This document shows positions 1-16,868 of a stretch of 64,000 nt of DNA, piece after piece (the first letter of the stretch is position 1; each line of letters opens with the position of its first letter). The DNA lies in contig CASFWA010000001.1 in NCBI GenBank assembly GCA_949298405.1, positions 231 through 64,230 of the forward strand, given 5' to 3'. Source of the stretch: an uncultured Pseudomonadota bacterium (lineage in GTDB: Bacteria > Pseudomonadota > Alphaproteobacteria > Rs-D84). Below the pieces are notes generated by a model. The model was not told the DNA's origin. It worked only from the letters and a program-made list of their open reading frames with translations, and made no database searches. Both the position numbers and the translations under genes were made by a program.

Positions 1-382
1 TGGATATTTCCAAATTCAACTGTCTGCATATCTCTTCTTGAACAGATTTTTGAATAATTCAAAAAATCTTTTGATGAGCTGCTTTTATTCACAATGTTTG
101 CGTAATTAACAAGAACCCTATTCATTTGGTCGTTCCGTTAACCGCAGAATTTCAGGGGTTGAGAGTTTTTTTGATTTATTCCCAACTTGAAAGCCCGCAT
201 AGTATGTGCGCAAATCGTCAAAAAGTCAAGCGATTTTTCAAAAATAATTTTCATATTTTTTATCCACTCACCAAAAACGCCGGAAATCCGCCATTTTTTG
301 TTTTAATTTTTTTTACTTTTTTGCTTTTTATTCCACAAGTACGATTCGTAATCCTTACTTTTATGATTCGAATTAGCACCAG

Positions 383-420
383 AAAAAAAATAAAAGACTG
401 CCGATTCGACAGTCTTTTTA
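383..420. terminator. Hairpin AAGACTG-N9-CAGTCTT with flanking A/T runs; bidirectional rho-independent terminator downstream of the minus-strand OMP gene
   Basis: Perfect 7-bp inverted repeat at 394-400/410-416 followed by TTTTT; preceded by an A8 run. Confidence 0.55.
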
Positions 421-443
421 ATCAACCAAATAAACAAAGGACT

Positions 444-1355
444 CTAAAAACGGTACATAAAGCCTATTTTTACCATAGGATAGAATTTTAACTTATCCAA
501 CTCGTCCTGAGCATCTGCCAGCGCATCGCGCTTTGCTTGCTCAAATTCGGCTATACCGTTTAACTCCACTTTTTCCCAACCAGAACCATTCCATTTCTGC
601 AAATTGTCTGTCGGTAAATCTAAACCAAGTTGCGCAGTCTTATTTGTAAACACTACGCCCGCATCCATATATATCTTCAGTCCTGCAAACAGTCCCAAAT
701 CAAACCCCGCACCTAAATAAGGCCCGCGATAATTCCAGTCGGCATTGGCCGTTCCATGAATCTGATTCCCAATATATTTATAATCTGTACCATTCAATTC
801 AAATGCAAACTCAGAATCTGGCAACCCGTCAACACTACCTGTTAAATTTGCTTCTAAATTTAATTTTCCAAAGTAATAACCACCTGAAATCCTTATTCCG
901 CCAAGAAACCAAGTATCACCAAACGGATAAAAATCTACTAATGCCGCAATATGTTGACCTTTGATATTTCCGTCTTTTATTTTTAAACCGTCACCTAAAT
1001 CAATGCCTTCATCCCCCATAACAGCATCAACCCCAGAATTTATCATGGACTTTACTGGTTCGGTACTAGCAAAATCTAAACGGAACCCAAGCCGCTTCCA
1101 CCAAAACGAATCGAAGTTTTTATTTGCATATCCCACAAAACCATTTAGCCCACTAGTTGCAGACACACCTACACCAAGTTGCAAACCATGTGGGAATTTT
1201 ATATCCGGATTTACGATTTCTTTTTCTGAAGAAACAGAAACTGCACTTTCTGTATTTGAAGTCGCTTCAACTTTTTCTTCTGGCAGCCCAGCCTCTTCTG
1301 CAACCGCAGGCATTACCAATGTTGCCAATATAGCAAAAACAGAAATTTTTTTCAT
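444..1355 (-). CDS. Outer membrane beta-barrel protein (porin/OmpA-like), exported
   Basis: N-terminal signal peptide (MKKISVFAILATLVMPAVA), alternating amphipathic strands and a C-terminal aromatic ending ...FMYRF typical of OMPs. Start moved to the MKK Met inside the track ORF. Confidence 0.6.
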   Translation of the reverse strand: MKKISVFAILATLVMPAVAEEAGLPEEKVEATSNTESAVSVSSEKEIVNPDIKFPHGLQLGVGVSATSGLNGFVGYANKNFDSFWWKRLGFRLDFASTEPVKSMINSGVDAVMGDEGIDLGDGLKIKDGNIKGQHIAALVDFYPFGDTWFLGGIRISGGYYFGKLNLEANLTGSVDGLPDSEFAFELNGTDYKYIGNQIHGTANADWNYRGPYLGAGFDLGLFAGLKIYMDAGVVFTNKTAQLGLDLPTDNLQKWNGSGWEKVELNGIAEFEQAKRDALADAQDELDKLKFYPMVKIGFMYRF

Positions 1356-1489
1356 ATTTTCCCCCATTAAAAATTTCTTTAACTCTTCTTTTACAAACTA
1401 TAACAGATTAAAGATTTTTATCTCAACCAAAAAAACAACTTAAATTTGTGTTCAAAACATCTGTTTTTTGTGATATTATTCAAAGTATG

Positions 1490-2800
1490 AAAAGCAGAAT
1501 TATTATTTTTTCGTCCCTGCTTTGTTTGTGTGGGACGACATCTGGTTTCGCATCAGAATGCATGGGGCCAGAATGCAATATAGAACCTATAAATATGCCA
1601 GTCATTTCTGAACCGACTGTTTTAGGAATGCCGCAAGCGGTTCCCGTTGTTGCTGAATATGCGCAGCCTGTGGAATATGTTTATGCACAGCAAATCCCTA
1701 TGCGGGAAGTGAAATTACTGTCTATCAAACCAGTACCCGAAGACACACGCCCACCTGTGTGGGACGGTACCGCAGGCGACTATGACCCACGTGGTTATGA
1801 TAAAACTGTCGATTGGCGTGACGGAGTTCCTATTTGGGACGATTCCATATCAAGTTATAAATATAAAGATTTTACAGATTGGTTCTTGCAACCAATGACA
1901 GAAGTTTATATTCGTGACGCAAGCGATGTTCAAACAATGCCTGTTGCACAACAACAACCAACTGTACAACAAGAAAACATTGATGTAATGGCACTATATC
2001 GCCAGAACATGGCCGACGCTGCCGCAACACGCGCACGCGTAGAAGAATTGCTATCCCCACAAAAACCTTCTGGAAATCTATGGGGATGCGCGGACGAAAA
2101 TGTGACAGAAACTGTTTCTGAAAAAATTGAATTGCCTGCACCGAAACCAGAATATGTGGCACAAGACCTAACAGAAGTTGTCAAGGTCACTTTCGGTCGT
2201 ACAGACGGATGTCCTTTTGAAACAGAAACAGAATGCGAAATATGGCGCAGGAAACCAATTGTTATCGAAACAGTTTCCCCACGTAGCCCCAAGATTCGTG
2301 CAGACAAAATGAACGAATTTATAAACGCGGCACGTTGCAACAATGAAATCACAGCAAATGAAGCTGTTTCGGCCCCTCTGTTGGAACGTTATAAAATACT
2401 TATGAAGTCCGCACAAGCTTGCTGCACAGACGGTATGGCTTACGCGCTTAAAAAAGCAGGTGCAACAGATGGTCTGGTTTACAAATTCTTGGCAGATGAT
2501 GCAAACTTCTATGGGTTCGGCGCGCGTTGCCTTATGACAACAGACGAAGAACTAGATACAAAATATCCAAATACTTCTACTGCAGCAGTTGTAGCAGATG
2601 TTAGAAACGGATGTTTATGCCGCGGTCGCCAATGGTTCGAAGCAATGCTGGCACCTTTTAAAGATGTTTATAAAGCATTGCCAGAATTTGCGAACGAAAA
2701 GTTCTACTACACTTACACCGATGGTTTGCAGCGCGAAATAACAGTATCTGTAAACAACGATGTTCAGAATGTGTTGAACCAACTAGAACGGTGTCCGTAA
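1490..2800 (+). CDS. Hypothetical exported Cys-containing protein
   Basis: ORF with a signal-peptide-like N-terminus (MKSRIIIFSSLLCLCGTTSGFA) and many Cys; no recognisable family. Followed by a terminator hairpin at 2821-2846. Confidence 0.5.
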   Translation, partial: KSRIIIFSSLLCLCGTTSGFASECMGPECNIEPINMPVISEPTVLGMPQAVPVVAEYAQPVEYVYAQQIPMREVKLLSIKPVPEDTRPPVWDGTAGDYDPRGYDKTVDWRDGVPIWDDSISSYKYKDFTDWFLQPMTEVYIRDASDVQTMPVAQQQPTVQQENIDVMALYRQNMADAAATRARVEELLSPQKPSGNLWGCADENVTETVSEKIELPAPKPEYVAQDLTEVVKVTFGRTDGCPFETETECEIWRRKPIVIETVSPRSPKIRADKMNEFINAARCNNEITANEAVSAPLLERYKILMKSAQACCTDGMAYALKKAGATDGLVYKFLADDANFYGFGARCLMTTDEELDTKYPNTSTAAVVADVRNGCLCRGRQWFEAMLAPFKDVYKALPEFANEKFYYTYTDGLQREITVSVNNDVQNVLNQLERCP

Positions 2801-2820
2801 TAAAACATAGTCATGTAAAT

Positions 2821-2846
2821 AATCCCCGCAGAAGTGGGGATTTTAT
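2821..2846 (+). terminator. Rho-independent terminator (AATCCCC-loop-GGGGATT-TTTT)
   Basis: 7-bp perfect stem plus T-run immediately after the stop of the 1490-2800 ORF. Confidence 0.65.
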
Positions 2847-2870
2847 TAATGAAAATCTTCTATAAGGAAC

Positions 2871-2897
2871 AAAAAAACGCGTCTAGGCGCGTTTTTA
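2871..2897. terminator. Palindromic hairpin AAAACGCG-TCTAG-GCGCGTTTTT, bidirectional terminator
   Basis: Perfect palindrome with an A-run 5' and a T-run 3'; lies at the 3' end of the minus-strand gene 2895-3665. Confidence 0.6.
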
Positions 2898-3665
2898 TCT
2901 TTGTTGTGTATTTGTATTTTGTCGCGATTTATTTTGCTGGTCTTCTATTGCCTGCATAACTGCGATATTTAATGCATACGCACAGTTATTTACCGCATCA
3001 CGTTGTGCCGACAAATTAGTACACGCCTCTGGTTTTGTATATTTATTGTTATTAGCATCATATAAAACCCCGCTAATAGAATACGCCCTGGCAAATTCTA
3101 AATCTTTCTGCAACTGACGATATGCTTCACCAATATTACCCGCACTTACTGCCTGCAAAACTATACGAATATTATTCTGTATACAAGACAAACCATCTGA
3201 TGTACTAGATTTTAACAAACAATTTTCAGCACCTATTAATACAACATTTCTATCGCTGGAAGCAGAACTGCTTGAAGAAGACGAACTTGGTGCACCTGCG
3301 GCCTCTAATTGCGCAGTTAAAACCGCTTTCTGCAACTGGGTTTTAAAACGGCTTATTGTCGCCTCTAAAAAGTCATATTGCTTCTTTAACTGCTGCGTCA
3401 TTATAGTTGTCTTTAATGCAACCACATCACGCATTAATTGTTTATCAGAATCATTAGTCGGATTAGATACCAACCCAATATTATAAACGTGTGTACTGCA
3501 TAATGCCAATTCTGGCGTTATACGGTCATTATTATCATCACCGCAACCATTATCTGTTGCAGAATACGCAGGTAATGTAAACATCAATGCACTAATTATG
3601 CCCCCAAACGCAAGCGCACGTCCCGCATCAGAAAACACAGAAAAGATGTTTTTTATCGACTTCAT
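2895..3665 (-). CDS. Exported hypothetical protein with coiled-coil and poly-Ser tract (Cys-rich family member)
   Basis: Signal-like N-terminus, SSSSSSSSASS run and Cys pairs. Start codon directly abuts the stop of the upstream 3666-5852 gene. Confidence 0.5.
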   Translation of the reverse strand: MKSIKNIFSVFSDAGRALAFGGIISALMFTLPAYSATDNGCGDDNNDRITPELALCSTHVYNIGLVSNPTNDSDKQLMRDVVALKTTIMTQQLKKQYDFLEATISRFKTQLQKAVLTAQLEAAGAPSSSSSSSSASSDRNVVLIGAENCLLKSSTSDGLSCIQNNIRIVLQAVSAGNIGEAYRQLQKDLEFARAYSISGVLYDANNNKYTKPEACTNLSAQRDAVNNCAYALNIAVMQAIEDQQNKSRQNTNTQQR

Positions 3666-5825
3666 TTACTTCAAAAGACCCTCTAATAAATTTGTAGAAC
3701 TACCTACAGAAAATATACCGCCACTAATTATACCATTCTGGCACCCATATCCCAATGTATAACTTAATACTTTAGAACCACACATGCATTCATCTGCGTT
3801 CATTATACCACCTGCAGCTTCACATGCATCCTTATCAAAATCCCAAACACGAGAAACCGAAGTTGTAGCAACAGAAGAATTACTTGTCATAATCTCGCAA
3901 GTTCTTTTTATATTTTCATCCGATATTCCACTGCAATCACAAGTTGATGTAGCGCTATTCCACTTTGCACCATAAGAAGAATTATCTTCACAAATTTCTC
4001 TTATTAAGCCACCAGAATTTGTGAAATACTTAGTGTCCTCTGCTGATTCGCCCTTAGAATTTACGCACATAGCACGTTCATAATCAAATGTAGAATACTC
4101 ACCACCACCTGGACAAGTGCATTCACCTTCCCCGTTCTTAGCATCTTTTGCAGGTACCCATTGAGAATTCTTACTTAAACTATTATCACATACACACTTA
4201 AGGTAATTATAACCTTGCAAAGCAGAACATTTCATCATTACGCTTTGTGTGCTTGCGCCAGTATCACCTTGGGCAATCTTACCGTCAGAAGTATATAATC
4301 TTTCTAAATCATCATCACGAACACAAACTCTATCTGGCAACTGCTTTAAACTTGCATACTTTTGTAAATCTTGAAATGTTGTAGCATTCACTGCGCAATA
4401 TTTTACACCATCTGGGTCTGCACTTTTATTCTGTCCAAACCGATTGCCACCAAATACAGCAGGTGCATCCTGTTCTATCATACGTTGCAAGACTTCTATG
4501 TCAATAGATGCCTGCTTCTTACGATTACGGAACAACGCGGAATTATCCAATGCTTCTGATGCGCAACCTACGCGAACTTGTACACCATCAACTGTTCCCA
4601 TTTCTGGATATAACCAATTCCTTTGAACTTCTGCTTCATCTGTCAACATCTTTATCAACTGACAACCACCATCTGACATAGGAACGACTTGCCCGACTTC
4701 GCACTGCGCGCCACCACGAACAGCACCTTCTGCAGTTGCAACAGATACAGACCTACCGTTTACACAATTAGTTCCATTATAATGCATTACTTGCCCAGGC
4801 CCGCATAAATACTGTCCCCAAACATTGCAAGTACCATTCAGCATCATATAAATATCTGTTATATCAACCCCGACAGATTGCGCCAAAATCAATGCGTCAT
4901 ACAGCTCATCTAAAACGTTATTATATGGTTCAAAGAAATTCATCGCTTTTTGCTTGAACGTCTTTACACGTTTCGGTCCTGTACAATTATTTCCAGTTGT
5001 ATCACAACCTGCATATTCAAATGCAGTATTCATTGCCGCTTTTACCTCTTTTAAAGCGACTTCTGCATTTTCTATTTTTGATAAAATTTGCCCTGAAATC
5101 TGTTCGCGCGCAATAACATCCGCAGAAACACCCGAAGCCGCAGCAACACTTTGTGCAGTGGTCAGACCACCAGATTCTGAATTATTTGATGCTGTTGTAG
5201 AAGTTGAAGCCGATGTACTTGGTTGTGCGGTATTAGTATTAGCCTGTGCAATTGCCTGGGCAGTTAACTGTTTCTGTTCTTCCAATGCGGCCTGTAATTG
5301 CGCTGTGGTTTCCGCGTTTTGCTGCTGCATTTGTGTTTGCATTTGCTGCATCTGAGCCTGCATTTGTTGCAACTGTTGTGCACTTTGCTGTGCCGCCGCC
5401 TGAGCCGCAGCAACCTGCGCATCAGCGGCCTGCTGATTTGCTTTTGCTGTGGAATTCGCCACTATCTGTGCAGAAATATATTCTATTAAATCGTCGCCGT
5501 ATTCTTTACAGGATTCATTAGATTCAACACACCCCGCAACAATAGGACGCGCAATTTCCAATGTTGTACAACCACCTGTCGCACACTTTGGTTGTGCACA
5601 ACGCAATATAAGCGCATTACAATTACCAAAATCTGCCGCTGGCGCGTTTGCCATACTATTCGAACGAGCATTTACAAAATTATTCCAAACATTATTATTT
5701 ATCGACCCCGATGTCGGATTATACGCAGTCAAATTACTGCCCGCCGTAGTTGCAACAGGTGCAGAAATAGCATCTGAAGACACTAATGCTAAAGCAACTA
5801 GCAAAAATCTGGATATATTCTTCAT
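3666..5825 (-). CDS. Large exported Cys-rich protein with N-terminal 6-Cys module, Q/A-rich coiled-coil and S/T-rich linker
   Basis: Signal peptide (MKNISRFLLVALALVSS), module C-x6-C-x4-C-x4-C-x12-C-x5-C at about nt 5490-5630, and a QQMQAQMQQMQTQMQQQ tract encoded by CTG/CAG-rich DNA at 5270-5450. Confidence 0.55.
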   Translation of the reverse strand: MKNISRFLLVALALVSSDAISAPVATTAGSNLTAYNPTSGSINNNVWNNFVNARSNSMANAPAADFGNCNALILRCAQPKCATGGCTTLEIARPIVAGCVESNESCKEYGDDLIEYISAQIVANSTAKANQQAADAQVAAAQAAAQQSAQQLQQMQAQMQQMQTQMQQQNAETTAQLQAALEEQKQLTAQAIAQANTNTAQPSTSASTSTTASNNSESGGLTTAQSVAAASGVSADVIAREQISGQILSKIENAEVALKEVKAAMNTAFEYAGCDTTGNNCTGPKRVKTFKQKAMNFFEPYNNVLDELYDALILAQSVGVDITDIYMMLNGTCNVWGQYLCGPGQVMHYNGTNCVNGRSVSVATAEGAVRGGAQCEVGQVVPMSDGGCQLIKMLTDEAEVQRNWLYPEMGTVDGVQVRVGCASEALDNSALFRNRKKQASIDIEVLQRMIEQDAPAVFGGNRFGQNKSADPDGVKYCAVNATTFQDLQKYASLKQLPDRVCVRDDDLERLYTSDGKIAQGDTGASTQSVMMKCSALQGYNYLKCVCDNSLSKNSQWVPAKDAKNGEGECTCPGGGEYSTFDYERAMCVNSKGESAEDTKYFTNSGGLIREICEDNSSYGAKWNSATSTCDCSGISDENIKRTCEIMTSNSSVATTSVSRVWDFDKDACEAAGGIMNADECMCGSKVLSYTLGYGCQNGIISGGIFSVGSSTNLLEGLLK

Positions 5826-5925
5826 ATTCTCTCTTAAAATCAATTTTAGCATAAAAAATATGCTCTGAAAAGATAAAAATCACGCAACAAACCCAATACA
5901 CAACAAAATTATCCTTAAAAATAAT

Positions 5926-7737
5926 TTGACAAAATATCTTTTTGTATATACCATTGTTTGCATGATTATACAAGATGGCGTTCTTTCTGATGCAAATATT
6001 AAAGACCTTGATTCCGATGGTGCTTTGCACATTCCGGAAGGTGTACAAATTGTCGCTTCTGACATTTTAACAAACTGCCCTAAATTAAAAGCAATATATT
6101 TTCCAGAAAGTGTAAAAAAAATTTTTGACAACGCCTTCAACGACAACAAAAACCTAGAAACTATTTATTTCGGAGAAAACACAAAAAGACTTTCTTCTGA
6201 ATCTTTTAGCGGATGTGACAATATAAAATTTATAAAAGTAGCCAGAAAGTGGAAAGGAAATTTCATAAACTTTTTCTTTTACACCTGTAATAACTTACAA
6301 AAAATAATTAGAAAAAATACCGATGGCGCGCTTGTCGAATATGAAATATACAATTTTAAAACTCATACTTTTTTAAAAAAGAGCCAACATAACATCGGTG
6401 ACACAGAAGTTGCCACAGTCCAAAACATATCTTTTGACGGCGATAAAATAAATGGGGATACTTTTTATATTATAAAAACCCCAAAAATAGGTGTTATGGA
6501 AGTGTCTTTGGAAAAAGCACTTAAACGCGCAAAACAACTTTTAATAATCAAGGAATTTAAACGACAAATATGGTTGGCAAAAACAAAAAACAATATTACA
6601 GATGATTCTTTAAATATTGAAACCATATTAGTTTCTGCATTAGATAAAACACTGACAACTAATAAAATATCTTTAAAAAAGAATAATTATATTTTAATCA
6701 AAGGCTTTTTTAAAAATTTACCTAAATATATCAAATATATATCTTTGATGCAGAAAAAATATCCAAACGCAAAACAAAATCTAGACGAATTGACAGATGT
6801 CTGCTTGGAAGACTTAATTAAAATTATTACCCCAAAAAGAAAGTCATTAAATAAATCTTGTACACACCTACTAAAAAAACACCCTGTTTCTAACAAAGAA
6901 ATGCAAAACATGGTTTCCATAGGGTTCAAAAACCCAGGTGCTTTTCCTGTTTCTTGGCTACGCAATCTTCCCAAAGAAAAATATGGGGATGCTACAAAAA
7001 AACTACACAACCTATTAAAAAACGCAGCATCAAAAATGTATTCCACTTCTGTTAAAAGCATATTTCCAGAAGAAATGGAAAAACTTGCAAAAAATATAAC
7101 AAAAATTATAAAGCAACACATAGAAATACAATACCTATCAGCGGGCCACTTTTCAAAAACTTACACTCTGCAAATACCTGGTGATAAAAAATACGTATGG
7201 AAAATATATCATTGTGATAATGGGTACAACTATATGTCTTCTTGGGGACACGACACAGAATTACAAAATTCTTTCTTATTATCTGGGAAAAAATATACAG
7301 GCAATATAAAATTTAGAAAAATATCTACGGCTGGTATTAGTAATCAACGTGGTGAAATATATTTAATTTACCCATTTACAGAAGACATACCAAAACAAAT
7401 AAATATTCAGACCAAATATATAAAATTTAAACGCGCCGTTGTATATGATGAAAATATTATTAGTAATTGTATAAATCGTACTTTTATAGACTTGGGTTCT
7501 ATTCATATAAATCAAGAAAGATGGTACCAACCGCTTCCTATTAGAAAAATTGCAAACACAATTTTATACCATTCTTGGAAAGAACTTTCTTATGTACTGA
7601 CAAATTATTCTTCGGACCAAATAAAATCCGCCACAGATTTTATAGAAAGAAACATGTCAAAAGAACTTATAACAGAAGGCATACTTAATAAAAAAATAAA
7701 TTATCTAAAAATAGAACTACAAAAACGAATAAGATAA
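5926..7737 (+). CDS. BspA-type leucine-rich-repeat protein with long N/K-rich C-terminal region; no signal peptide (candidate secreted effector)
   Basis: N-terminal about 110 aa show the BspA-like LRR pattern (ILTNCPKLKAIYFPESVKKIFDNAFNDNKNLETIYFGENTKRL...CDNIKFI). Gene is markedly AT-richer than its neighbours. Track start is TTG; an in-frame ATG lies at 5962. Confidence 0.5.
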   Translation: MTKYLFVYTIVCMIIQDGVLSDANIKDLDSDGALHIPEGVQIVASDILTNCPKLKAIYFPESVKKIFDNAFNDNKNLETIYFGENTKRLSSESFSGCDNIKFIKVARKWKGNFINFFFYTCNNLQKIIRKNTDGALVEYEIYNFKTHTFLKKSQHNIGDTEVATVQNISFDGDKINGDTFYIIKTPKIGVMEVSLEKALKRAKQLLIIKEFKRQIWLAKTKNNITDDSLNIETILVSALDKTLTTNKISLKKNNYILIKGFFKNLPKYIKYISLMQKKYPNAKQNLDELTDVCLEDLIKIITPKRKSLNKSCTHLLKKHPVSNKEMQNMVSIGFKNPGAFPVSWLRNLPKEKYGDATKKLHNLLKNAASKMYSTSVKSIFPEEMEKLAKNITKIIKQHIEIQYLSAGHFSKTYTLQIPGDKKYVWKIYHCDNGYNYMSSWGHDTELQNSFLLSGKKYTGNIKFRKISTAGISNQRGEIYLIYPFTEDIPKQINIQTKYIKFKRAVVYDENIISNCINRTFIDLGSIHINQERWYQPLPIRKIANTILYHSWKELSYVLTNYSSDQIKSATDFIERNMSKELITEGILNKKINYLKIELQKRIR

Positions 7738-7748
7738 AGCACAAATAA

Positions 7749-7778
7749 AAAGAAACGCCCAAACGGGCGCTTCTTTAT
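7749..7778. terminator. Bidirectional terminator hairpin (AGAAACGCCC-AAAC-GGGCGCTTCTTT)
   Basis: Long stem with one mismatch between convergent genes (LRR gene + and 1052-aa gene -). Confidence 0.6.
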
Positions 7779-10700
7779 TCCATACTGGTGCTAATTATAT
7801 CACCATACATACCAACCTCGTCTGCACCTATATAGCAGCGGATGTGCTTACCAACACTATCCATCCATTCGTTATATGCCGCTTTTTCTGCAGAATCCAA
7901 ATTAGTATCTTGGATATCACGAGTCAACTTATTTACAATCAATGTACCAACAACACCCGACGCAACTGCACCGCCTAAGTTAATCAAAGAACGAGTTCTA
8001 TTTTCTTTTGTTGCATCTGCATTTTGTGTTGTATTAGCACTGCCTGCTGCAACACTTACTGCGTTTTTCAAAGAATCCAATTCATTATTCGCCGCAGTTT
8101 TTGCTGCTGTCTTGGCCGCAGTATCAACAGTATTGTCGTCTTTTACAAACGAGCCAGCCGCTGTTGTCACTGCCTTGCGTGCAGAATCAATATTTGCAGA
8201 AGCAGCCTTTGCATTCGTTGCCAAAGTGATTAATGCTTCACCATATGTCAGCGCTTTTGCTCCATCTGTTTCTGCTTTATAAAAAGCCAAGATTCTGTCA
8301 TATTCTTCTGTTACATTTTGTGTATTAACTGTGTTTGCACTAGCAGATTTAGAACTTGAATTGCCTATTAAACCACCCAAGAAATCGCCATCTTGCATTG
8401 AATCAAACAAGTATCCACCACCAATTGCAGAACCTAGACCACCCAATACAGTCAACCATGTACGTGTACGTTTTTGTGACTCCGCTTTGTCTTCTACACT
8501 TTCTGCAGCAATAGCATTACCGATTTCTTCCAGCGCACTTGATGGTATCCAACTGCCACAAGTAAATGTATCACCTGCTGCAAAGTATGCATTTGACCAA
8601 TCACTACCTTCACGTATAGCATCCTGAATATTCTTATCATCAGACTGAATTGTTATACGGATACGGCAGAACGAACCATACAAATCATTACTTGCAACGA
8701 AATCCTTGGTTTCCAAACCTGCAACACTATAATTTGTAGGAACTTTGTTGTTTTTCAACTTTACCCACATATATGTACTGCCCATATCTTTGTTACCGAC
8801 AATACCACCCGCATTGCTGGACATACACATATTCTGTTGCTTTGTCAGTTTCGCATTGTACTTTGCCTGCGCTTCCATTTCCAAATCCGCAATTAAATCA
8901 CGGAAGATTTGTCTTTCAGCCAAATTCTGTGCATATGTTGTCTGAGAAACCATCTTTGGATATATATACTGACCACTGGCATCGTCACAACGACCTGTCA
9001 CACCATCACCGTTATCAGCGGTTGTACACAACAGATTTCCATCTGCATCAATATCCTGAACTTCCGCTGTAATGCTGTAATTACCAGCATCTAACCAACC
9101 TTCACGAACAGTCGTAATACCACTGCCCCATGAATTTGCTGTATAAGATGAATTTGCAGAACTACGCGCCATTTCAGCTTTGATATGTTCTTCACATACA
9201 CTATTATTCTTTACTGTATTCAAGCACAATCCCAAAACAATTGTATGATCTAAAACACCGCCAACTTTATTCATACTGCTATCAAAACTATCATTACCTG
9301 TATTCGTCAGAGTTGAATATATATCTGTACGATTGCGATAACAATTCTGATAATCTGTACCACACATAGACTTTACACAACTTGTCGCAATAGATTGACA
9401 CTGCTTCTTCATCTGGTCTAATGCAGATTGATTATAAGAAGTAGACAAACTTGCATTCAATGTTGCAACCGCACCAACCGGGTCAGGATTTGACGCATCC
9501 ACATCATCTGGCGCAGTAAACAACTTGTCAAATATGCTATTTTCTTCAAATATCAAAGCACCAGTCACACTATCGAATGTAGCCGCTGCATACTGGCAAG
9601 CAGTATCATTATTTACAACCGCTTCACACCCCATTTTTATACCTTCCATTGTAGAAGGATTTGTGACACCTTTTACCTTATTTGCACTATTAAATGCAGA
9701 CGCATAACACGCCGCGCCACTTCCTTCACCACAAGTACGCATAGCACAAGAAACAATTGTTTCCGAGCAACGTTCTTTTACTTTTTTATCGAATTGCGCA
9801 ATTAAATCGTCAATCTTTGCACGCATAGAATCATTCATACGCGAAGAATATGCTTCTGAATAAATTGCATCTTTATTATCTTCATCACGCAACTGAGAAT
9901 TTGTCGGCATAACACCATTGCTTAAAAATGTTGCATAGCAATATTTGTTGGCACCAATTGTATCCAAACAAGCATTCTTCAAGAATCCAGAAACTTCGCT
10001 ACGACTAACAGTTGTCTGAACCAAATCACTTGTAGATGTGCTTACCAATGTGCCATCTGTGCTATTTACATTTTCTACATATTTTATAATTTCCTGAGAA
10101 CTACCTTCCTTGCACTTATAAGGATTTGACGCACACGCGTTCAAGAAACATTGGTCAACAACCTTATAGCAAGTAGACACCGCATTTACTGCCGCCAACG
10201 CCGCACCTTCTGAAATCATAATACCGATACGGCTGTTGCTTGTAGGATTCGCAGAAGTATTTGTAGAACCAAATAATTCATTCAACCCATCATCCTGGCA
10301 GCGTGCTAATGTTGATTCACAGAATAATTTCTGCTTTTTGAATTCTGTATTGCTTGTGCACAATTCAAAGTCTGTACCACAAACATCTTCTTTCTTTAAA
10401 CAGTTTGTATATCTTCTGACACAGTCACTTGTATCCAAACGATTGCTAATGGACGCGGCCTCAATCAACTGACCCAAAACACTGCCATCTGTTGGGTAAA
10501 CATATTCACCATCAGAATTCTTATTCGTAAACAATGTCTGATTGCTTGTACCAAACAAAGAATTCACACCAGATGTGCTACATTGCAACAAGGTACTTGC
10601 ACACAATGGACGTTTCGAAAAGAACAATGTTTTGTTTGTACATTCTTCAAAATTAGCACCACAAACATCAGAACCCTTTAAGCAACTTGTATATGCTTCG

Positions 10701-10888
10701 ATACATTCTGCGTTTGCCAGCAACGACGATGTTGTCGAAGATGTACTGCCACTTGTAATATAAGCAGTCATCGTTGGCATACGTGAAGACGCAGTACCTA
10801 TTACACTAGGACGCGCCGTCAATGCAAAAGCCGCCGGAACAACGCCGAAAGCAGCCATAAATCCCATTGTTTTTTTCAGAAGACTCAT
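7775..10888 (-). CDS. Very large exported Cys-rich protein with tandemly duplicated 6-Cys module, helical A/T/K-rich region and C-terminal hydrophobic segment
   Basis: Start placed at the MSLLKK Met preceded by GGAGTGAG (RBS-like). Signal peptide present. The module C-x6-C-x6-C-x6-C-x12-C-x6-C occurs twice (aa about 75-130 and 169-224). Confidence 0.55.
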   Translation of the reverse strand: MSLLKKTMGFMAAFGVVPAAFALTARPSVIGTASSRMPTMTAYITSGSTSSTTSSLLANAECIEAYTSCLKGSDVCGANFEECTNKTLFFSKRPLCASTLLQCSTSGVNSLFGTSNQTLFTNKNSDGEYVYPTDGSVLGQLIEAASISNRLDTSDCVRRYTNCLKKEDVCGTDFELCTSNTEFKKQKLFCESTLARCQDDGLNELFGSTNTSANPTSNSRIGIMISEGAALAAVNAVSTCYKVVDQCFLNACASNPYKCKEGSSQEIIKYVENVNSTDGTLVSTSTSDLVQTTVSRSEVSGFLKNACLDTIGANKYCYATFLSNGVMPTNSQLRDEDNKDAIYSEAYSSRMNDSMRAKIDDLIAQFDKKVKERCSETIVSCAMRTCGEGSGAACYASAFNSANKVKGVTNPSTMEGIKMGCEAVVNNDTACQYAAATFDSVTGALIFEENSIFDKLFTAPDDVDASNPDPVGAVATLNASLSTSYNQSALDQMKKQCQSIATSCVKSMCGTDYQNCYRNRTDIYSTLTNTGNDSFDSSMNKVGGVLDHTIVLGLCLNTVKNNSVCEEHIKAEMARSSANSSYTANSWGSGITTVREGWLDAGNYSITAEVQDIDADGNLLCTTADNGDGVTGRCDDASGQYIYPKMVSQTTYAQNLAERQIFRDLIADLEMEAQAKYNAKLTKQQNMCMSSNAGGIVGNKDMGSTYMWVKLKNNKVPTNYSVAGLETKDFVASNDLYGSFCRIRITIQSDDKNIQDAIREGSDWSNAYFAAGDTFTCGSWIPSSALEEIGNAIAAESVEDKAESQKRTRTWLTVLGGLGSAIGGGYLFDSMQDGDFLGGLIGNSSSKSASANTVNTQNVTEEYDRILAFYKAETDGAKALTYGEALITLATNAKAASANIDSARKAVTTAAGSFVKDDNTVDTAAKTAAKTAANNELDSLKNAVSVAAGSANTTQNADATKENRTRSLINLGGAVASGVVGTLIVNKLTRDIQDTNLDSAEKAAYNEWMDSVGKHIRCYIGADEVGMYGDIISTSME
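10261..10711 (-). repeat. Intragenic tandem duplication (about 282-nt period) encoding two copies of a 6-Cys module
   Basis: Two about 56-aa segments align with identical Cys spacing (ECIEAYTSCLKGSDVCGANFEECT... / DCVRRYTNCLKKEDVCGTDFELCT...). The duplication is also visible as similar antisense ORF translations at 10236-10472 and 10542-10763. Confidence 0.7.
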
Positions 10889-10981
10889 TAGACTCACTCC
10901 ATACTTATTATTTAAGTATAACATAAAATACATTTTTGATAAAGAAAAATATACGCAAAAATAAATACTTTTAACAAATTT

Positions 10982-11008
10982 AAAAGGGGCTTTTGCCCCC
11001 CTTTTTCA
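10982..11008. terminator. Hairpin AAGGGGC-TTTT-GCCCCCC with T-run; terminator for rluD (-)
   Basis: GC stem flanked by A/T runs just 3' of the rluD stop. Confidence 0.55.
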
Positions 11009-11009
11009 C

Positions 11010-11972
11010 TTATCCTATTTCATCAAGAATACATTTTAATTCTTGCATATCATCGGGCATATGCGCCTTAAAATGCATTTCCTTTCCCGTCACAGGATGT
11101 TTGAAATCTAAAATCTCGGCATGCAACATCTGACCCGTATGTTCTTTTATAAATTCTAATAGTTCCGGATTTTTTACACTGCCTAATCTTGAAGAACCAC
11201 GTCCGTATACGGGGTCACACAAAACCGGAAAACCATGTGCCGACAAATGTACCCTTATCTGATGCGTTCTGCCCGTTAATAAATTACACCTGAACAACGA
11301 AACGCCTGCACGCGTCCACACATCTGCAACTGTCACTTCTGTATGAGCAGGTTTACCACCCGTCTTTACCATCGACATCTTCTGACGGTTCCTTGATGAA
11401 CGCGCAATATTACCTGTTATATCTGCGCTTTCCCAATTAGGAACACCCCAAACAAACGCAATATATTTTCTTGTCAAATCGTGTTCAGAAAAAGTCTTTA
11501 CCAACCCACGAAATGCCGCATCAGATTTTGCAAAAACCATTACACCACTGGTATCCTTGTCCAATCGATGAACAACACCTGGACGCGTCGCCCCACCCAG
11601 CGCAGACAAACTTGTATACGACAATATATTCTGAACCAAAGTCCCTGTTTTATTCCCAGCAGACGGGTACATAACCACACCACGCGGCTTATTTATTACA
11701 ATAATGTCTTCATCTTCGTATAAAATATCTAAATCAAAATCTGACGATATATTTTCTGCGGCAATATCTGTTTTTCGTTCTGGTATATCAACAACCACAA
11801 TATCCCCTAATTTTAACCGTTGTGAAAATTTTTCAGCAGAACCATTTACAGAAACATTAAATTTCTGTATTTCACTACGAGAAAAATCAGAAAGTTGTGC
11901 AACCAAAAATTTATCTAGCCGCAACCCGACTTCTTCTTCTGATACCACAAATTTTAAATTATCTTGTCGCAT
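11010..11972 (-). CDS. rluD: 23S rRNA pseudouridine synthase, RluA family (RluD-like) with N-terminal S4 domain
   Basis: S4-like N-terminus plus RluA catalytic motif HRLDKDTSGVMVFAK and downstream conserved blocks. Confidence 0.8.
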   Translation of the reverse strand: MRQDNLKFVVSEEEVGLRLDKFLVAQLSDFSRSEIQKFNVSVNGSAEKFSQRLKLGDIVVVDIPERKTDIAAENISSDFDLDILYEDEDIIVINKPRGVVMYPSAGNKTGTLVQNILSYTSLSALGGATRPGVVHRLDKDTSGVMVFAKSDAAFRGLVKTFSEHDLTRKYIAFVWGVPNWESADITGNIARSSRNRQKMSMVKTGGKPAHTEVTVADVWTRAGVSLFRCNLLTGRTHQIRVHLSAHGFPVLCDPVYGRGSSRLGSVKNPELLEFIKEHTGQMLHAEILDFKHPVTGKEMHFKAHMPDDMQELKCILDEIG

Positions 11973-11980
11973 ATAAAAAT

Positions 11981-12472
11981 CTACTTTATATCTTTCCAGT
12001 CTGTGCCTTTTTTACATTCGGACAAATTTATTGTTAATTCCCTGTCTTCACTTTCAACCGGGCATGTTAATAACCCTGTACTAACAGCCTGATCCGCTTC
12101 ACGCGTGGCATTCCGCCAAGTAAAATTTATCTCTTTCGGAGGATAGATACACGCAATTCTTAGTTCTCCTTCATGTTTGTCGTTCGGCCCCAACCAAACA
12201 CGCACACCTTCGCCAAGACCATAGCAAGGAAAACCATCTAAATAATATAAAACAAGCCCCTTGCCAACAAGACTTGATGAAGTTATAAATTTTCCACGAT
12301 ATTCATGATAAGACAATCCTGTAAGCCCTTCCCAATCCGTACTGGTAGAAAAAATACTAATACGCGGTTGGGGTGCAGGCGTTTCGCGATACCCAGGCCT
12401 ATTACCAGTCGCAGCCCAAGAACCAGACATACAAAGAAGTACCATAACAAATACGAAACCTAAATATTTCAT
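11981..12472 (-). CDS. Small exported hypothetical protein, operonic with pilin-like genes
   Basis: Signal peptide (MKYLGFVFVMVLLCMSGSWA). Its start overlaps the upstream gene stop as ATGA (12469-12472). Confidence 0.45.
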   Translation of the reverse strand: MKYLGFVFVMVLLCMSGSWAATGNRPGYRETPAPQPRISIFSTSTDWEGLTGLSYHEYRGKFITSSSLVGKGLVLYYLDGFPCYGLGEGVRVWLGPNDKHEGELRIACIYPPKEINFTWRNATREADQAVSTGLLTCPVESEDRELTINLSECKKGTDWKDIK

Positions 12473-12996
12473 TTTCCCCCCCCTGTTTTTTCTAGTTCTA
12501 CTGCTATTTTCTTTACATTCTGTGTCGGAACAGATAACACATGCATAAACTTTGCATTACTGCCAGAATCAAGTAATGTAGCAGGCGGCATAAAACGTTG
12601 TCTATCAACAACTTTACCAGAATCATCATAAGAAACTATTATTATCCAAGGCACACCATAAATCTGGTCAGACCTGTTATGAACCTGACCACTAACCACA
12701 AAACGAACAATACCAGAATCATCTGTGACTGTGTTTATTTCCGAAACCTCGGCTATTAAAGGGTTTTCTTGTATTATTTTTATTCGATGTTGTGCAATAA
12801 CCGCAACTGCAAAAACACCAGCCGCCAATAAAGCGCAACAAGCAGCAATAAATGTTAACCACGCATTACGACGAGGAGGCCTTTGTACAGTCCATGTATT
12901 ACCACATACCGCACACTTTACTGGCCCCTTGGGAACAGAATCTAATGAATATTCTGTTTTACAAAAATTACAAACTGTTTTCATACGACGATTCAT
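12469..12996 (-). CDS. Zinc-ribbon (MJ0042-type CxxC...CxxC) single-pass membrane protein, DUF3426-like
   Basis: N-terminal CNFCKTEY...CAVCGNTW, then a TM helix (LTFIAACCALLAAGVFAVAVIA) and a C-terminal domain; translationally coupled on both sides. Confidence 0.6.
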   Translation of the reverse strand: MNRRMKTVCNFCKTEYSLDSVPKGPVKCAVCGNTWTVQRPPRRNAWLTFIAACCALLAAGVFAVAVIAQHRIKIIQENPLIAEVSEINTVTDDSGIVRFVVSGQVHNRSDQIYGVPWIIIVSYDDSGKVVDRQRFMPPATLLDSGSNAKFMHVLSVPTQNVKKIAVELEKTGGGK

Positions 12997-13004
12997 AGCA
13001 TATT

Positions 13005-14327
13005 TTATTCCAAATTCAACTTTCTATATTTCGCACTAACTGTCTTTTGTATATCTTTTATCGCATTCATATAGTCGGATACTGTGGCATTACTATTTGC
13101 AGAAACCGCACTAAATATTCTTCCAGACTCTGTATTTTTCCCGTTTTCTTCATAAGTCGCCATAACCGCCATACGATTTAAATCTTCAAATTCTACATCT
13201 AAAAAATTTGCAACCCCCAATTTTACATCCCAGTAATAATTAGGATTAATCGAATCTTCTATTCTATTATAAACAACCAGACGAGGAGTAATAGACCCAG
13301 CAAAACCAACCGTGACATACATTGTATCTATACGTCCTGATGTCATATCAATAGACTTATTAACCTTTAAAACAACAGGCTCATTATCATATGTATACGA
13401 TGAAAAACCACCCAAAGTCATATTAGAAACCCATAAATCATCAGTTGTAAAACTAGAAAACTTCGCGGTATCATCTAAACTTAACACGCCAGAAACTTCC
13501 ATAGTTCTGGAATCCGCAGACATAATGCCAGACACAGTTGCACTTGCCGTCTCGAAAGATTTATCTATTGTTGTTCTATTTTCAAAAATCGTATTATTTG
13601 CAACCGCAACCCCCAAAGTCAATGTTTCATCAAACTGTGCACCAGAAGCATTAAAGAAAGACGTATTTATAATATCATGCCCACCTAAATTTAACCCCGA
13701 TAGCATTGTCGCATCAGACGGATTTTCTGACGGGACCCGCCACAAATATAATGCATTGTCACGATTAACAGATGTTGTTTCTACGATACCACCAGAAACA
13801 GTTAAACCTAAATCAACAGTATCAATATGCCAAGCACCAAACGTACCATATGCACGATTACCTTCGATAAACCCCATAGAATCCCCACCAAGCGCAACTA
13901 TTTCACGTGTTCTAAGCGGTGAAATTTCATCAGAATTAAAAACTATAACTCCCTGCAAGGTGGCTTTGTCATCAAGGTCATTAGACTTTAAGATTCTTAA
14001 TTGATAGTTATCTGCTGACGCTTCAACCAAATCAGCCGACACACCATAATCTACCAAATCCGCTAAATTAACTCTTGTGATATTTCTACCAACTGTATTT
14101 AATAAAGTTTCGCGATTATCAAGAATATAACGTTCCAGCGCAGTCTGTATATTCCCCATCTGATTTGTTATTGCTATATTCTCTGCACGTAATGCAGCAT
14201 TTTTCTGATATTTGAAAATAAACGGCATTACTATTGCTGCCAATGCGACACTCATCAGCAACTCTATCAACATACTACCCTGTTGCATATCGTTGTTTCT
14301 GAAAAAAATCTCTTTTCTTTTCTTCAT
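13005..14327 (-). CDS. Giant pilin/pseudopilin-like protein, paralog 1 (class III signal G|SMLIE)
   Basis: N-terminus ...QQG-SMLIELLMSVALAAIVMPF with Glu at +5 and a hydrophobic helix. The start at the MKKRK Met forms an ATGA overlap with the upstream gene stop. Shares a central LxxLNLGG motif with paralogs 2 and 3. Confidence 0.6.
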   Translation of the reverse strand: MKKRKEIFFRNNDMQQGSMLIELLMSVALAAIVMPFIFKYQKNAALRAENIAITNQMGNIQTALERYILDNRETLLNTVGRNITRVNLADLVDYGVSADLVEASADNYQLRILKSNDLDDKATLQGVIVFNSDEISPLRTREIVALGGDSMGFIEGNRAYGTFGAWHIDTVDLGLTVSGGIVETTSVNRDNALYLWRVPSENPSDATMLSGLNLGGHDIINTSFFNASGAQFDETLTLGVAVANNTIFENRTTIDKSFETASATVSGIMSADSRTMEVSGVLSLDDTAKFSSFTTDDLWVSNMTLGGFSSYTYDNEPVVLKVNKSIDMTSGRIDTMYVTVGFAGSITPRLVVYNRIEDSINPNYYWDVKLGVANFLDVEFEDLNRMAVMATYEENGKNTESGRIFSAVSANSNATVSDYMNAIKDIQKTVSAKYRKLNLE

Positions 14328-15526
14328 CTGACTTCCTTTGGCATAGCAGACTGCCATCCCTTAGACAATATTACTTTAAACGATTCTTTTGATGGCGCAG
14401 ACGGTTTTTCAGCACGACTTAATGTCAAAGATGCAAATCGTGGAGGCGTAAGCGACGGGAACACCCACGAGCCTATTTTTAGCGGTGCGGTTGTAGACAT
14501 CAATAATTCGCCAGATATTGTTAACCCAAAATTATCATAAAAAACTATTTCTTCTGTTGAAACATAAGATGTTGTCACAGAATGCGCCGCAATACCAGTA
14601 AAAGCACTTATCGTCCTAGATGTATCAGACTTTAAATTTAAATTATTTGCAATATTTACAGAATTATTTACTGTCGCCCTATCTGTAATTATACGCCCCT
14701 TGGTAGTATATTTATTTCCATTTAATGAATTAGCATATATATTTCGAAACCCAGATATATCACCAGTCACACGCAAACTACCTAAATATGCAGTATCCCC
14801 ATAAAGATTGGCACCAGAAGAAAAATAAATCGTATTAGATAATAAACTACCACTTTCAATAAACGAAGTAGACGCATTCTTTATTTCTGCTGATTTTGCT
14901 ATTACCCCACCAACACCAAAGACATTTTTGTCATCCATATTTAAATCACGCAACATCATATTTAATTTGTCTTCACCATTAGTTGTACGGTGTAAATATT
15001 TTGATTTGTCTTCCCCTTCTATATCACGCGATATACGATATATTAAATCCCCTTCTTTAAAATCCGGCGCAGCAACCGCCCATGTATCACCATATGCAAC
15101 CCCGTCAATTCCAACTACTGCCGCATCCATACCTATATGCTTTGCAACTTGCATTGTGCGCAAATCGCTTTCATCTAAATCAAAAGACAAATAAACATCT
15201 GTAACTGTCGCACCATTTACATAATACTTATCAATAAATCCTGTTGACGGTAATTCCGATATCTCATCTAATTCTTCATCAGACAACTTTATCTGCGCAA
15301 TATCTGGCCAACTCGCCTGATTTAACCTTACATAATTTAAAACATCATCGCGCAAAGATATTATCTTTTTCGCCTCTACCATATCTCGTAAAGAATTATT
15401 TGTTTCACTAATCTGACTGTATAAAAACGGGGTTGCCATAGCAACAATAGCCATAGCCAGTAAAACTTCTAGCATACTGGAACCATGTTCAGATTCTAAA
15501 AATTTCTTTGTTTTATAAACAGCCAC
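14324..15526 (-). CDS. Giant pilin/pseudopilin-like protein, paralog 2 (class III signal G|SSMLE)
   Basis: N-terminus ...EHG-SSMLEVLLAMAIVAMATPF with Glu at +5. Central motif LRDLNMDD..VFGVGG. Overlaps the upstream gene by 14 nt. Confidence 0.6.
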   Translation of the reverse strand: MAVYKTKKFLESEHGSSMLEVLLAMAIVAMATPFLYSQISETNNSLRDMVEAKKIISLRDDVLNYVRLNQASWPDIAQIKLSDEELDEISELPSTGFIDKYYVNGATVTDVYLSFDLDESDLRTMQVAKHIGMDAAVVGIDGVAYGDTWAVAAPDFKEGDLIYRISRDIEGEDKSKYLHRTTNGEDKLNMMLRDLNMDDKNVFGVGGVIAKSAEIKNASTSFIESGSLLSNTIYFSSGANLYGDTAYLGSLRVTGDISGFRNIYANSLNGNKYTTKGRIITDRATVNNSVNIANNLNLKSDTSRTISAFTGIAAHSVTTSYVSTEEIVFYDNFGLTISGELLMSTTAPLKIGSWVFPSLTPPRFASLTLSRAEKPSAPSKESFKVILSKGWQSAMPKEVR

Positions 15527-16868
15527 TTTTACCTTCCAACAAACACTGCTTTATGTCTATTCTTTTCTCTAATCTTTGCCAAAATACATACTGGCAAATT
15601 ATATATTGTGATAAAGACTTCTGATTATAACGACCTTCTAAATCTGTTATTATTGATTTGCAATCAACTGTTTTTCCATCGTCTGACGAAGGTTTATCAA
15701 TAATAGCAAAAACAGAATTATCAACTGAATCCAATAACGCATCCGGCAAAACAGATGTCCCAGCAGGCCTGATATCTAAAACAACAGCACCTGTTTCACC
15801 CCTATTTAACGCATCAGATGTTTGGTCACGCATCGTGATATTCGATGCAGCAATATACCCCGTTTCTATTCCACTTCTAGAACTATATAGTAGATTATCT
15901 GGATCAATATAAACGTCTTGTCCACGCGACACATTTATAAAAGAATCAACCTCAAGTCTTTCTAAACTAAAATTGATATTATCCGTAATAACATCACCAC
16001 CAACATTCCATTTTGTCGGTCCATAAAAACTATTTTTACCTGCACTCATTGCAAAATCATATACAGACGCAGAAAACGATTCAAAATTCCCCGTATCACC
16101 AAATTTAGAAATAGTCTTTGCATTCACAGAATTAACGAACAAAGTACCACGCGTGACGGACAAAGCAGCCTCGCCTGATTGACTTTGAAATACCGCTTTT
16201 TCAGAAGCCATTACTTCTATTTCATTTTTTGTTTTACGACCGTTTTCTTCCCCGAACAAAGATAATGTACCAAATTGCCCAGTTTCAAACTCACCACGTC
16301 TTGCAAAAACATCCCCCGCATTATTAAAAACAAAACCTCCCATATTCAAATCAGTCAAAAACGCACTATTATCTAAATTCTTTTCATTCCTTTTTACAAC
16401 ATCAGAATAAACTTCATTTAAAGCCAAGCCGACTATCACCCTGTCGCCTTCGGCCGCTGCATAAAAACCTATTCTACGAACAAGTTCCGCAATCTGAATC
16501 CCCGATAAATCACCACCCGTCAATTCAAGATACGCACTTACTTGTGTAGCATCTTTATTTATAACCAAAGCAATATCCTGCCCAAGTGCTGTACGCGGGA
16601 CAAAACCTAATGGCAAACCATATGGTTCTAGCAAATCGGCAAAAGCGTTGCCAGAAATTACAGTCGTATTATAAGGTAAATCATTAGCACGTTCGCGAAT
16701 AAAAATTCGTGCCGCAGTCTGTGCAGTTTCTACCTTTCGCGTAGAAGAATACATCTGCGCATCCACATCCCTTGAACTTAACCGTTGCGCAAAAAATGGG
16801 ATAAAAGAAAACATTAATGTCAATGCTAACAAAGCTTGTAATAAAAAATTTCCACTTTGTTTTTGCAC
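15513..16868 (-). CDS. Giant pilin/pseudopilin-like protein, paralog 3 (atypical leader G|NFLLQ)
   Basis: N-terminus MQKQSG-NFLLQALLALTLMFSFIPFF with Gln instead of Glu at +5. Central motif LTDLNMGGFVFNNAGDVF shared with paralogs. First gene of the operon. Confidence 0.55.
   Translation of the reverse strand: MQKQSGNFLLQALLALTLMFSFIPFFAQRLSSRDVDAQMYSSTRKVETAQTAARIFIRERANDLPYNTTVISGNAFADLLEPYGLPLGFVPRTALGQDIALVINKDATQVSAYLELTGGDLSGIQIAELVRRIGFYAAAEGDRVIVGLALNEVYSDVVKRNEKNLDNSAFLTDLNMGGFVFNNAGDVFARRGEFETGQFGTLSLFGEENGRKTKNEIEVMASEKAVFQSQSGEAALSVTRGTLFVNSVNAKTISKFGDTGNFESFSASVYDFAMSAGKNSFYGPTKWNVGGDVITDNINFSLERLEVDSFINVSRGQDVYIDPDNLLYSSRSGIETGYIAASNITMRDQTSDALNRGETGAVVLDIRPAGTSVLPDALLDSVDNSVFAIIDKPSSDDGKTVDCKSIITDLEGRYNQKSLSQYIICQYVFWQRLEKRIDIKQCLLEGKSGCL

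Follow-up and report, generated by a model that had tools for sequence, protein, structure and literature searches.

A conserved, lineage-restricted block of genes for cysteine-rich exported proteins in Rs-D84 gut Alphaproteobacteria that is not an island

Near one end of a 64,000-nucleotide stretch of DNA from an uncultured alphaproteobacterium (contig CASFWA010000001.1, positions 231–64,230; hereafter the window) lies a block of six open reading frames (ORFs), A to F, which with its terminator-like hairpins occupies positions 392–11003 (Table 1). The host is a reduced-genome gut alphaproteobacterium of the Rs-D84 / Candidatus Enterousia group. The original prediction for this sequence described an island of exported, cysteine-rich proteins, accompanied by a porin-like outer-membrane protein (OMP) and a signal-less leucine-rich repeat (LRR) protein. 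We are highly confident that the block is a conserved, lineage-restricted set of genes for exported proteins and not an island. The block belongs to the core chromosome and has been passed down vertically rather than acquired horizontally, and the gene set is confined to a lineage of small-genome gut Alphaproteobacteria, Rs-D84 / Ca. Enterousia.

Hydrophobic N-termini resembling Sec-type signal peptides are present in A, B, C, D and F, and none is seen in E when it is read from its first ATG (position 5962); these export calls come from simple hydropathy and a reading of the N-termini. Cysteine makes up 3.2, 2.3, 4.2 and 3.5% of B, C, D and F, respectively, compared with 0.76% when the remaining 46 genes of the window are pooled. 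Cysteine is lacking altogether from A, and F has 36 against ~8 expected. Low-complexity tracts are found in D (Q-rich and helical, approximately residues 107–330), in C (poly-Ser) and in F (S/T). All six ORFs, the four predicted cysteine-rich ones with signal peptides among them, lie at or directly adjoining their expected positions, and the Q-rich and poly-Ser tracts are likewise present. The start of B is the ATG at 1487, one codon upstream of the 1490 noted earlier, and that of F, at 10888, is preceded by a GGAG Shine-Dalgarno sequence. The GC content of A–D and F (0.38–0.44) is in line with that of the other genes (mean 0.382, standard deviation 0.028); E stands at 0.292.

Terminator-like sites number 23 in 12 kb, compared with 8.0 ± 3.3 in shuffled sequence. 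The block had been thought to be bounded by strong bidirectional terminators. Hairpins are indeed found at both ends, but the left one is on the minus strand only and others lie inside the block, where they part every transcription unit rather than merely flanking the whole. The stop codon of D (3666–3668) lies directly against the first base of C (3665) and, taken with the hairpins, this indicates five transcription units: A, B, D–C, E and F. The hairpin between rluD and F argues that F has its own promoter region.

Table 1. Genes and features of the A–F block (window coordinates, except where a related locus is named)
Feature	Position	Strand	Description or basis
A	444..1367	-	307 aa, Cys-free, predicted exported, OMP-like; divergent from B
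B	1487..2800	+	437 aa, Cys-rich, predicted exported, orphan family
C	2895..3665	-	256 aa, coiled coil, poly-Ser linker; second gene of D–C operon
D	3666..5825	-	719 aa, predicted exported, Cys-rich
D hypervariable C-terminal tip, residues 601–719	3669..4025	-	strain comparison
E	5962..7737	+	591 aa, signal-less, AT-rich, BspA-type LRR_5
F	7775..10888	-	1037 aa, mostly helical (AlphaFold2), 36 Cys, predicted exported
F tandem 6-Cys repeat, two ~68-aa copies	10250..10735	-	hhalign
F C-terminal anchor region	7934..8458	-	hydropathy
Terminator-like hairpin 3′ of A	392..418	- only	12-bp stem, 5 GC pairs, T-run
Terminator-like hairpin between convergent B and C	2821..2842	+	hairpin scan
Second terminator-like hairpin between B and C	2873..2896	both	hairpin scan
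Terminator-like hairpin between convergent E and F	7749..7776	both	12-bp stem, 6 GC pairs
Terminator-like hairpin between rluD and F	10982..11003	both	hairpin scan
Fused D–C ORF in five related loci	L002:14740-17334; L017:14738-17314; L022:14738-17311; L033:13161-15569; L053:6800-8968

Relatives of F were sought in one genome per GTDB species. This gave 222 stretches, from which 80 loci were kept; nearly all are titled uncultured Alphaproteobacteria, 'Rickettsiales bacterium' or Candidatus Enterousia, and their sources are human, ruminant, bird, rabbit and termite guts. Enterousia has been assigned to the uncultured order Rs-D84, and the genomes of this group are reported to be <1 Mb, to lack the tricarboxylic acid cycle, respiration and the standard transporters, and to retain RodA, MreB and MrdA; a partner-dependent lifestyle is suspected, and type IV pilus genes are mentioned only for another lineage, UBA9783 (PMC12306168). 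Some public records bearing the locus are filed as 'Bacteroides fragilis' and 'Lachnospiraceae bacterium' (L022, CAVGNU010000002.1; P0030, MDL2295573.1), which is probably the result of mis-binning.

The window proteins were compared by tblastn with 82 related loci (83 in a second count). F was found at 82 of them, B at 43, A at 30, D at 29, C at 28 and E at 16, and D and C always co-occur in the surveyed loci. Relatives were sampled around F only, such that a D–C or B–A pair missing at a locus is not equivalent to one missing from the genome. Upstream of F, a run comprising three pseudopilin-like genes (P3-P2-P1), a Zn-ribbon gene, a gene for a 163-residue protein and rluD is present at 70–72 of the 82 loci. 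The order F-E-D-C-B(-A) is kept in genomes whose F proteins are merely 50–60% identical. Full-order examples include an 852-kb scaffold (L002) and a common species (L083, in 88 data blocks), and F-E-D-C-B is found in L002, L003–L005, L010, L013, L019, L024, L030, L041 and L083. Elsewhere, F adjoins B–A directly or adjoins housekeeping genes, and the block is therefore best seen as independent units that simply sit side by side in this sub-clade, not as an integrated element. By the variable-presence test of an island, E is the sole patchy gene, found at 16–17 of 82–83 loci with 31–43% identity. Where E orthologues occupy this site, in low-GC genomes, they too are low in GC, which argues that E is an old resident and not a recent import.

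Evidence of mobility was not found. The Pfam scan revealed no integrase or transposase domain among the window proteins, flanking direct repeats occur at chance level only, no tRNA gene is adjacent (the nearest is at 43465), and protein-profile, plasmid and PHROGs searches found no homologues on plasmids, in phages or in unrelated phyla. With F present in 222 species and the gene order recurring at 50–60% identity, the term island has to be given up. The original prediction had also held that conservation in relatives with annotated functions would speak against it; the genes are conserved in relatives, but every homologue is titled 'hypothetical'.

A conspecific locus, L003 (CALXLS010000004.1), allows a closer comparison; it is 92.8% identical to the window at the nucleotide level over 17 kb (window 1–17000 versus L003:3891–20905). 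The ratio of nonsynonymous to synonymous divergence (dN/dS) for this pair is 0.064 for A, 0.041 for B, 0.068 for C, 0.107 for D, 0.096 for E and 0.032 for F. All six genes are real and under purifying selection. We also note that identity between the two strains is a mosaic, ranging from 100% down to 69% per 250 nt, and that dS is 0.55–0.66 for A and D versus 0.14–0.16 for C and F. The mosaic identity and uneven dS suggest frequent homologous recombination.

No matches to A, B, C, D or F were found in Pfam or NCBIfam, as anticipated for the cysteine-rich members. PHROGs and PADLOC gave only low-complexity noise on the Q-rich tract of D, and PDB profile searches with the F, D, B, C and A alignments gave coiled-coil noise only. 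Nor is there significant paralogy among the six families by blastp or all-against-all hhalign; the best local match between F and D is a C-x6-C-x4-C motif with an E-value of 0.45, which implies a shared pattern only and not homology. A search of the available paper library found no mention of the block proteins. The sequences are public but unannotated, and what is new are the families, the architecture of the Cx6C module and the lineage. Cysteine-rich exported proteins, one of them with a variable tip, are a familiar kind of thing.

F is the most conserved member of the block. It has more than 900 homologue clusters that are full-length and 45–99% identical, every one of them 'hypothetical'; the exact sequence is not on record, and a 99% relative is present in L003. 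In an alignment of 35 sequences with a mean column identity of 55%, 35 of the 36 cysteines are invariant. Modules of the form C-x6-C-x4-6-C-x6-7-C occur five times in F and once in D, in real reading frames only. Modules 1 and 2 of F fall in the tandem repeat of ~68 residues, whose two copies follow the pattern C-x6-C-x6-C-x6-C-x12-C-x6-C and match one another with an hhalign E-value of 7.7e-22 and 43% identity. The AlphaFold2 (AF2) model is mostly helical, with a predicted local distance difference test (pLDDT) score of 62 and a predicted template modelling score of 0.39. Hydropathy identifies a Gly-zipper-like hydrophobic segment at residues 811–828 and a transmembrane-like segment at residues 968–985. 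The linker between them is hypervariable (conservation 0.16–0.34), and conservation returns in the last ~40 residues. The C-terminus of F is membrane-anchor-like by these predictions. Among 1.84 billion representative proteins, searching with the F profile returned only 264 relatives, and the remotest of these, 'hypothetical' proteins from metagenome-assembled genomes of Alphaproteobacteria or Rickettsiales, are without the N-terminal repeat. Two proteins of ~300 residues match the F profile weakly (L068:312-1232, E = 1e-6; L079:16771-17658, E = 4e-6). The L079 protein shares with F a 'TAR(P)S' peptide after the signal peptide, which may represent a motif conserved at the N-terminus for sorting or processing.

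Several neighbours of F are of related interest. The 163-residue protein (positions 11981–12472, minus strand) is a fifth small cysteine-containing protein predicted to be exported, with five cysteines and no family; its gene sits between the Zn-ribbon/DUF3426 gene and rluD and is conserved at 72 of the 82 loci. Identity to L003 dips to 84% at 12251–12500, over its N-terminal part. P1–P3 (13005–16868, minus strand) encode proteins of 400–451 residues with the prepilin-type N-termini G/SMLIE, G/SSMLE and G/NFLLQ, the last of which is without Glu5, as in GspK. A PilS-like pilin of 169 residues with the N-terminus G/RSLIE is encoded at 18950–19459 on the plus strand. Among these pilin-like genes, matches to GspI, ComGG and PilS are weak, and neither a pilus ATPase nor a secretin is encoded in the 64-kb window.

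D is represented by at least 1359 homologue clusters. Its parts are (i) an N-terminal 6-Cys module with F-like spacing, (ii) a Q-rich helical hairpin, (iii) a highly conserved core (residues 240–500) and (iv) a C-terminal domain with four CxC motifs. Of the 30 cysteines, 21 are invariant and three nearly so. The AF2 model (pLDDT 53) contains a long helical hairpin, and a fold search matched helical hairpins only. Species-level identity falls from 0.7–0.86 in the body of D to 0.08–0.4 after residue 520. A similar pattern is seen between strains: compared with L003, residues 1–600 have a dN of 0.006–0.018, whereas residues 601–719 have a dN of 0.33 and a dS of 0.89, giving an omega (dN/dS) of 0.38. 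In the 17-kb strain comparison no other 250-nt bin is as poorly conserved as that of the tip (69%). Among 14 close variants of D, entropy is highest in the last ~120 residues, and all 30 cysteines are invariant. The C-terminal ~120 residues of D have evolved in the manner of an exposed specificity domain.

C contains a coiled coil and a poly-Ser tract, and all six of its cysteines are invariant. In five species a single ORF of 722–864 residues matches both the D and the C profiles (Table 1). By Rosetta-stone reasoning, the D–C operon of the window and the fused ORF elsewhere make D and C one functional unit whose two parts act jointly.

B has 553 homologue clusters, all 'hypothetical', with nine invariant cysteines, one nearly invariant cysteine and a very conserved C-terminal half. 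A and B form a divergent pair wherever A occurs (~30 loci). A had been described as porin-like: it has a signal peptide, is rich in Gly and aromatic residues and ends in an invariant Y-R-F, but has no match to an OMP family in Pfam, NCBIfam or the PDB. We regard A as a probable outer-membrane beta-barrel of no assigned family. An A paralogue of ~43% identity is present within 3 kb in L023, L035, L057, L065 and L075; in three of these five genomes it is immediately adjacent (for example, L065:15019-16002 and 16120-16914).

The assignment of E as a signal-less BspA-type LRR protein is confirmed. E matches Pfam LRR_5 with an E-value of 1.7e-12 (47.8 bits, cut-off 27.7; domain at nt 6025–6309), as do 15 of 15 orthologues, and its profile finds LRR proteins in the PDB, including 4gt6 and 4fs7, with E-values down to 1.6e-38. 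The LRR_5 domain is followed by a conserved domain of ~450 residues that belongs to no known family. E evolves ~3 times faster than its neighbours (dN ~0.57 versus ~0.18). Within residues 385–560 (7114–7641, plus strand) the motif order is G-x-F-S-K ... VWK ... HDTELQ ... YLIYP ... D-x5-N ... I-D-x-G, and the C-terminus is a basic tail, KIELQKRIR. The motif order by itself hints at a kinase-like fold for the C-terminal domain, for which neither hidden Markov model nor PDB sequence searches gave a match.

How might these proteins work? We infer, tentatively and at a little short of an even chance, that they belong to a lineage-specific, disulfide-stapled apparatus of the cell surface or periplasm in which D is the adhesin-like component that bears specificity. 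In such an apparatus, cysteine pairs would staple helical hairpins through disulfides (C-x6-C on adjacent helices) and the CxC motifs would staple small beta-hairpin repeats, yielding robust, protease-resistant extracytoplasmic proteins. F, tethered to the membrane by its C-terminal hydrophobic segments, would be the invariant scaffold, and D–C a stalked, adhesin-like unit. The hypervariable, disulfide-framed tip of D may engage a variable ligand carried by another cell, or may reflect immune or phage pressure. A would be an outer-membrane barrel partnering B, and E a fast-evolving LRR protein that may be cytoplasmic or secreted. Together they could form part of the surface apparatus with which transporter-poor, probably partner-dependent bacteria contact other cells. 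The surface or host-interaction locus of the original prediction is thus borne out in part, in that the products are exported, lineage-specific and non-metabolic and that the D tip resembles an exposed specificity domain.

Several observations weigh against this reading. The omega of the D tip is raised ~20-fold yet is still below 1, the heterogeneity of dS next to the tip points to recombination, and the tip may be under relaxed constraint. The AF2 models of F and D are of low to medium confidence. The host is anaerobic and is said to lack respiratory chains, and the cysteines could be metal ligands instead. D–C, B–A and E are absent at this position in many relatives, so the six genes need not act together, and the linkage between F and the pseudopilin operon is lost in the most divergent genomes.

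A bolder form of the proposal, that F, D–C, B–A and the giant pseudopilin-like proteins constitute a new cell–cell contact apparatus specific to Rs-D84 / Enterousia, we consider somewhat unlikely. If it were true, the apparatus would serve attachment to a partner cell and metabolite uptake, with the D tip setting partner specificity, and would be an alphaproteobacterial analogue, built from entirely new families, of the epibiont lifestyle of Patescibacteria.

It is also possible, though unlikely, that the proteins form a disulfide-cross-linked lattice in the periplasm or outer membrane that stiffens the envelope, like chlamydial OmcA/OmcB, and have no role in cell contact. Such a lattice would fit the abundant, invariant cysteines of proteins exported by a bacterium that depends on a host or partner, and F is extremely conserved and predicted to be membrane-anchored, as structural proteins are. 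However, the RodA, MreB and MrdA reported in Rs-D84 genomes argue for a normal sacculus, OmpA-family and lipopolysaccharide genes are present, and the OMP-like A has no cysteine. B, C, D and F match no OmcA/OmcB or other chlamydial cysteine-rich OMP family model in Pfam or NCBIfam, and the strain-level hypervariability of the D tip is left unexplained.

The synteny of F with the upstream pseudopilin-like run raises the question of whether F is an accessory, tip-associated or assembly protein of a type IV pilus or of a fibre, resembling that of a type II secretion system, made of the three giant pseudopilin-like proteins. The G/xxxxE prepilin motifs of P1, P2 and the PilS-like protein and the weak GspI, ComGG and PilS matches point in this direction, and F, with ~1000 residues and a signal peptide, is of PilY1-like size. 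F was found to have neither the C-terminal beta-propeller and/or vWA domain nor the co-transcription with minor pilins that mark PilY1, and we judge this role distinctly unlikely.

Less probable again, and in our view very unlikely, is that the conserved cysteines bind Zn or Fe in periplasmic metal-binding or redox proteins suited to the anoxic gut. Respiratory chains normally re-oxidize DsbB, and their reported lack in this anaerobic host is consistent with metal binding, as are the regular 4-Cys modules, which are spaced like metal-binding knuckles. The signals are of Sec type and have no twin-arginine motif, however, which makes the export of folded, cofactor-bearing proteins unlikely. The cysteines of the C-x6-C modules lie in AF2-predicted helices, as is typical of disulfide-stapled hairpins, and neither His/Asp co-ligand patterns nor a match to a metal-binding family was found.

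The UniRef entry A0A9D1SM96 (P0221), a D homologue, is titled 'IncF plasmid conjugative transfer protein TraN', a public name that is unsupported and misleading. TraN proteins are exported and cysteine-rich, with ~600 residues and a variable specificity tip. D shares with them a signal peptide and many conserved cysteines, and the gene for a VirD4-like coupling protein lies 17 kb away. That D is a TraN-type mating-pair-stabilization adhesin of a conjugative type IV secretion system is nonetheless scarcely credible. None of 33 D homologues matches Pfam TraN (PF06986) at E ≤ 1, nor does D alone at E ≤ 0.1; hhalign against the N- and C-halves of R100 TraN gave probabilities of 0.4–0.6%; tblastn against 72,556 plasmids gave no match at E ≤ 1; the PDB profile search returned no TraN; and traU, traW, trbC, traF, traH and traG are absent among the 51 window ORFs scanned. 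In R100 itself (L084, NC_002134) traN reads as two ORFs of 300 and 311 residues (4987–6837), and the PLSDB gene table has no entry for it; probably it either has a frameshift or is annotated there as a pseudogene. Equally far-fetched is horizontal acquisition as a genomic or pathogenicity island, which the clustering of exported proteins of no known family, the AT-rich E and the terminators at each end might suggest, but against which stand the gene order shared with distant relatives, the ordinary GC content of the other five genes, the AT-shifted orthologues of E at the same site, the lack of mobility features and the purifying selection on all genes.

The remainder of the window is core chromosome, with dnaX, skp, lpxD, infB, nusA, pnp, truB, mutS and infC as well as ompA-family, lptFG/lptD and parAB genes, the VirD4-like coupling protein and a MacAB-TolC-like pump. 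The coupling protein is of the VirD4/TraG type (22494–24701, minus strand; T4SS-DNA_transf, E = 1.7e-50) and lies amid housekeeping genes with no other vir or tra genes nearby, a scattered layout that recalls Rickettsiales. Four tandem membrane genes near F in L028 and L070 suggested a VirB6-like system, an idea that found no support in Pfam. Between truB and mutS are two overlapping ORFs of 171 residues (47441–47956 and 47934–48449, minus strand), the first of which is very AT-rich (GC 0.269); neither matches Pfam.

Bacteria of the Rs-D84 / Enterousia group occur widely in the guts of humans, livestock, birds and termites, and ~10 kb of strongly conserved exported proteins is a large investment for a genome of <1 Mb. 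The block is therefore a natural place to seek the machinery of the suspected partner dependence. Five orphan families now have boundaries, invariant cysteine frames and a repeated Cx6C module, and the misleading TraN annotation is corrected. The D tip is a candidate specificity determinant that could help to type strains and to predict partners from metagenome co-variation, and could be a target for antibodies or for pull-downs coupled to fluorescence in situ hybridization.

Comparison with known systems places these proteins near several familiar designs. D resembles TraN (PF06986) on paper: both are exported, have roughly 600–700 residues and numerous conserved cysteines, and combine a constant body with a variable tip, which in TraN determines partner specificity. 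Unlike TraN, D is encoded on the chromosome, within the core of a reduced genome and without F-type tra genes next to it; it also carries a long Q-rich helical stalk and has a partner in C, and D and TraN have no sequence or profile similarity. OmcA and OmcB are likewise cysteine-rich, Sec-exported proteins of a host-dependent Gram-negative bacterium, and OmcB doubles as an adhesin. In the present case no homology to them was detected, the co-located OMP-like A has no cysteine, and Rs-D84 appears to keep normal peptidoglycan and rod-shape machinery.

Like the BspA-type LRR proteins (LRR_5; PDB 4gt6, 4fs7 and TpLRR 6mlx), E has ~100 N-terminal residues that are bona fide LRR_5, but it is without a signal peptide or cell-wall anchor and adds a C-terminal domain of ~450 residues. 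PilY1/PilC tip proteins are encoded beside minor pilin genes, and F is comparable in having ~1000 residues, a signal peptide and a position just 3′ of a minor-pilin-like gene run. Finally, F and D can be likened, by cysteine spacing alone and with putative disulfides, to the twin-CxnC proteins of the mitochondrial intermembrane space (CHCH, twin Cx9C/Cx3C), in which cysteine pairs at fixed spacing are placed on consecutive helices, an arrangement in which two disulfides would staple the alpha-hairpin. In F and D, by contrast, the spacing is Cx6C with a turn of 4–6 residues, and the modules are set inside very large bacterial proteins exported by the Sec route.

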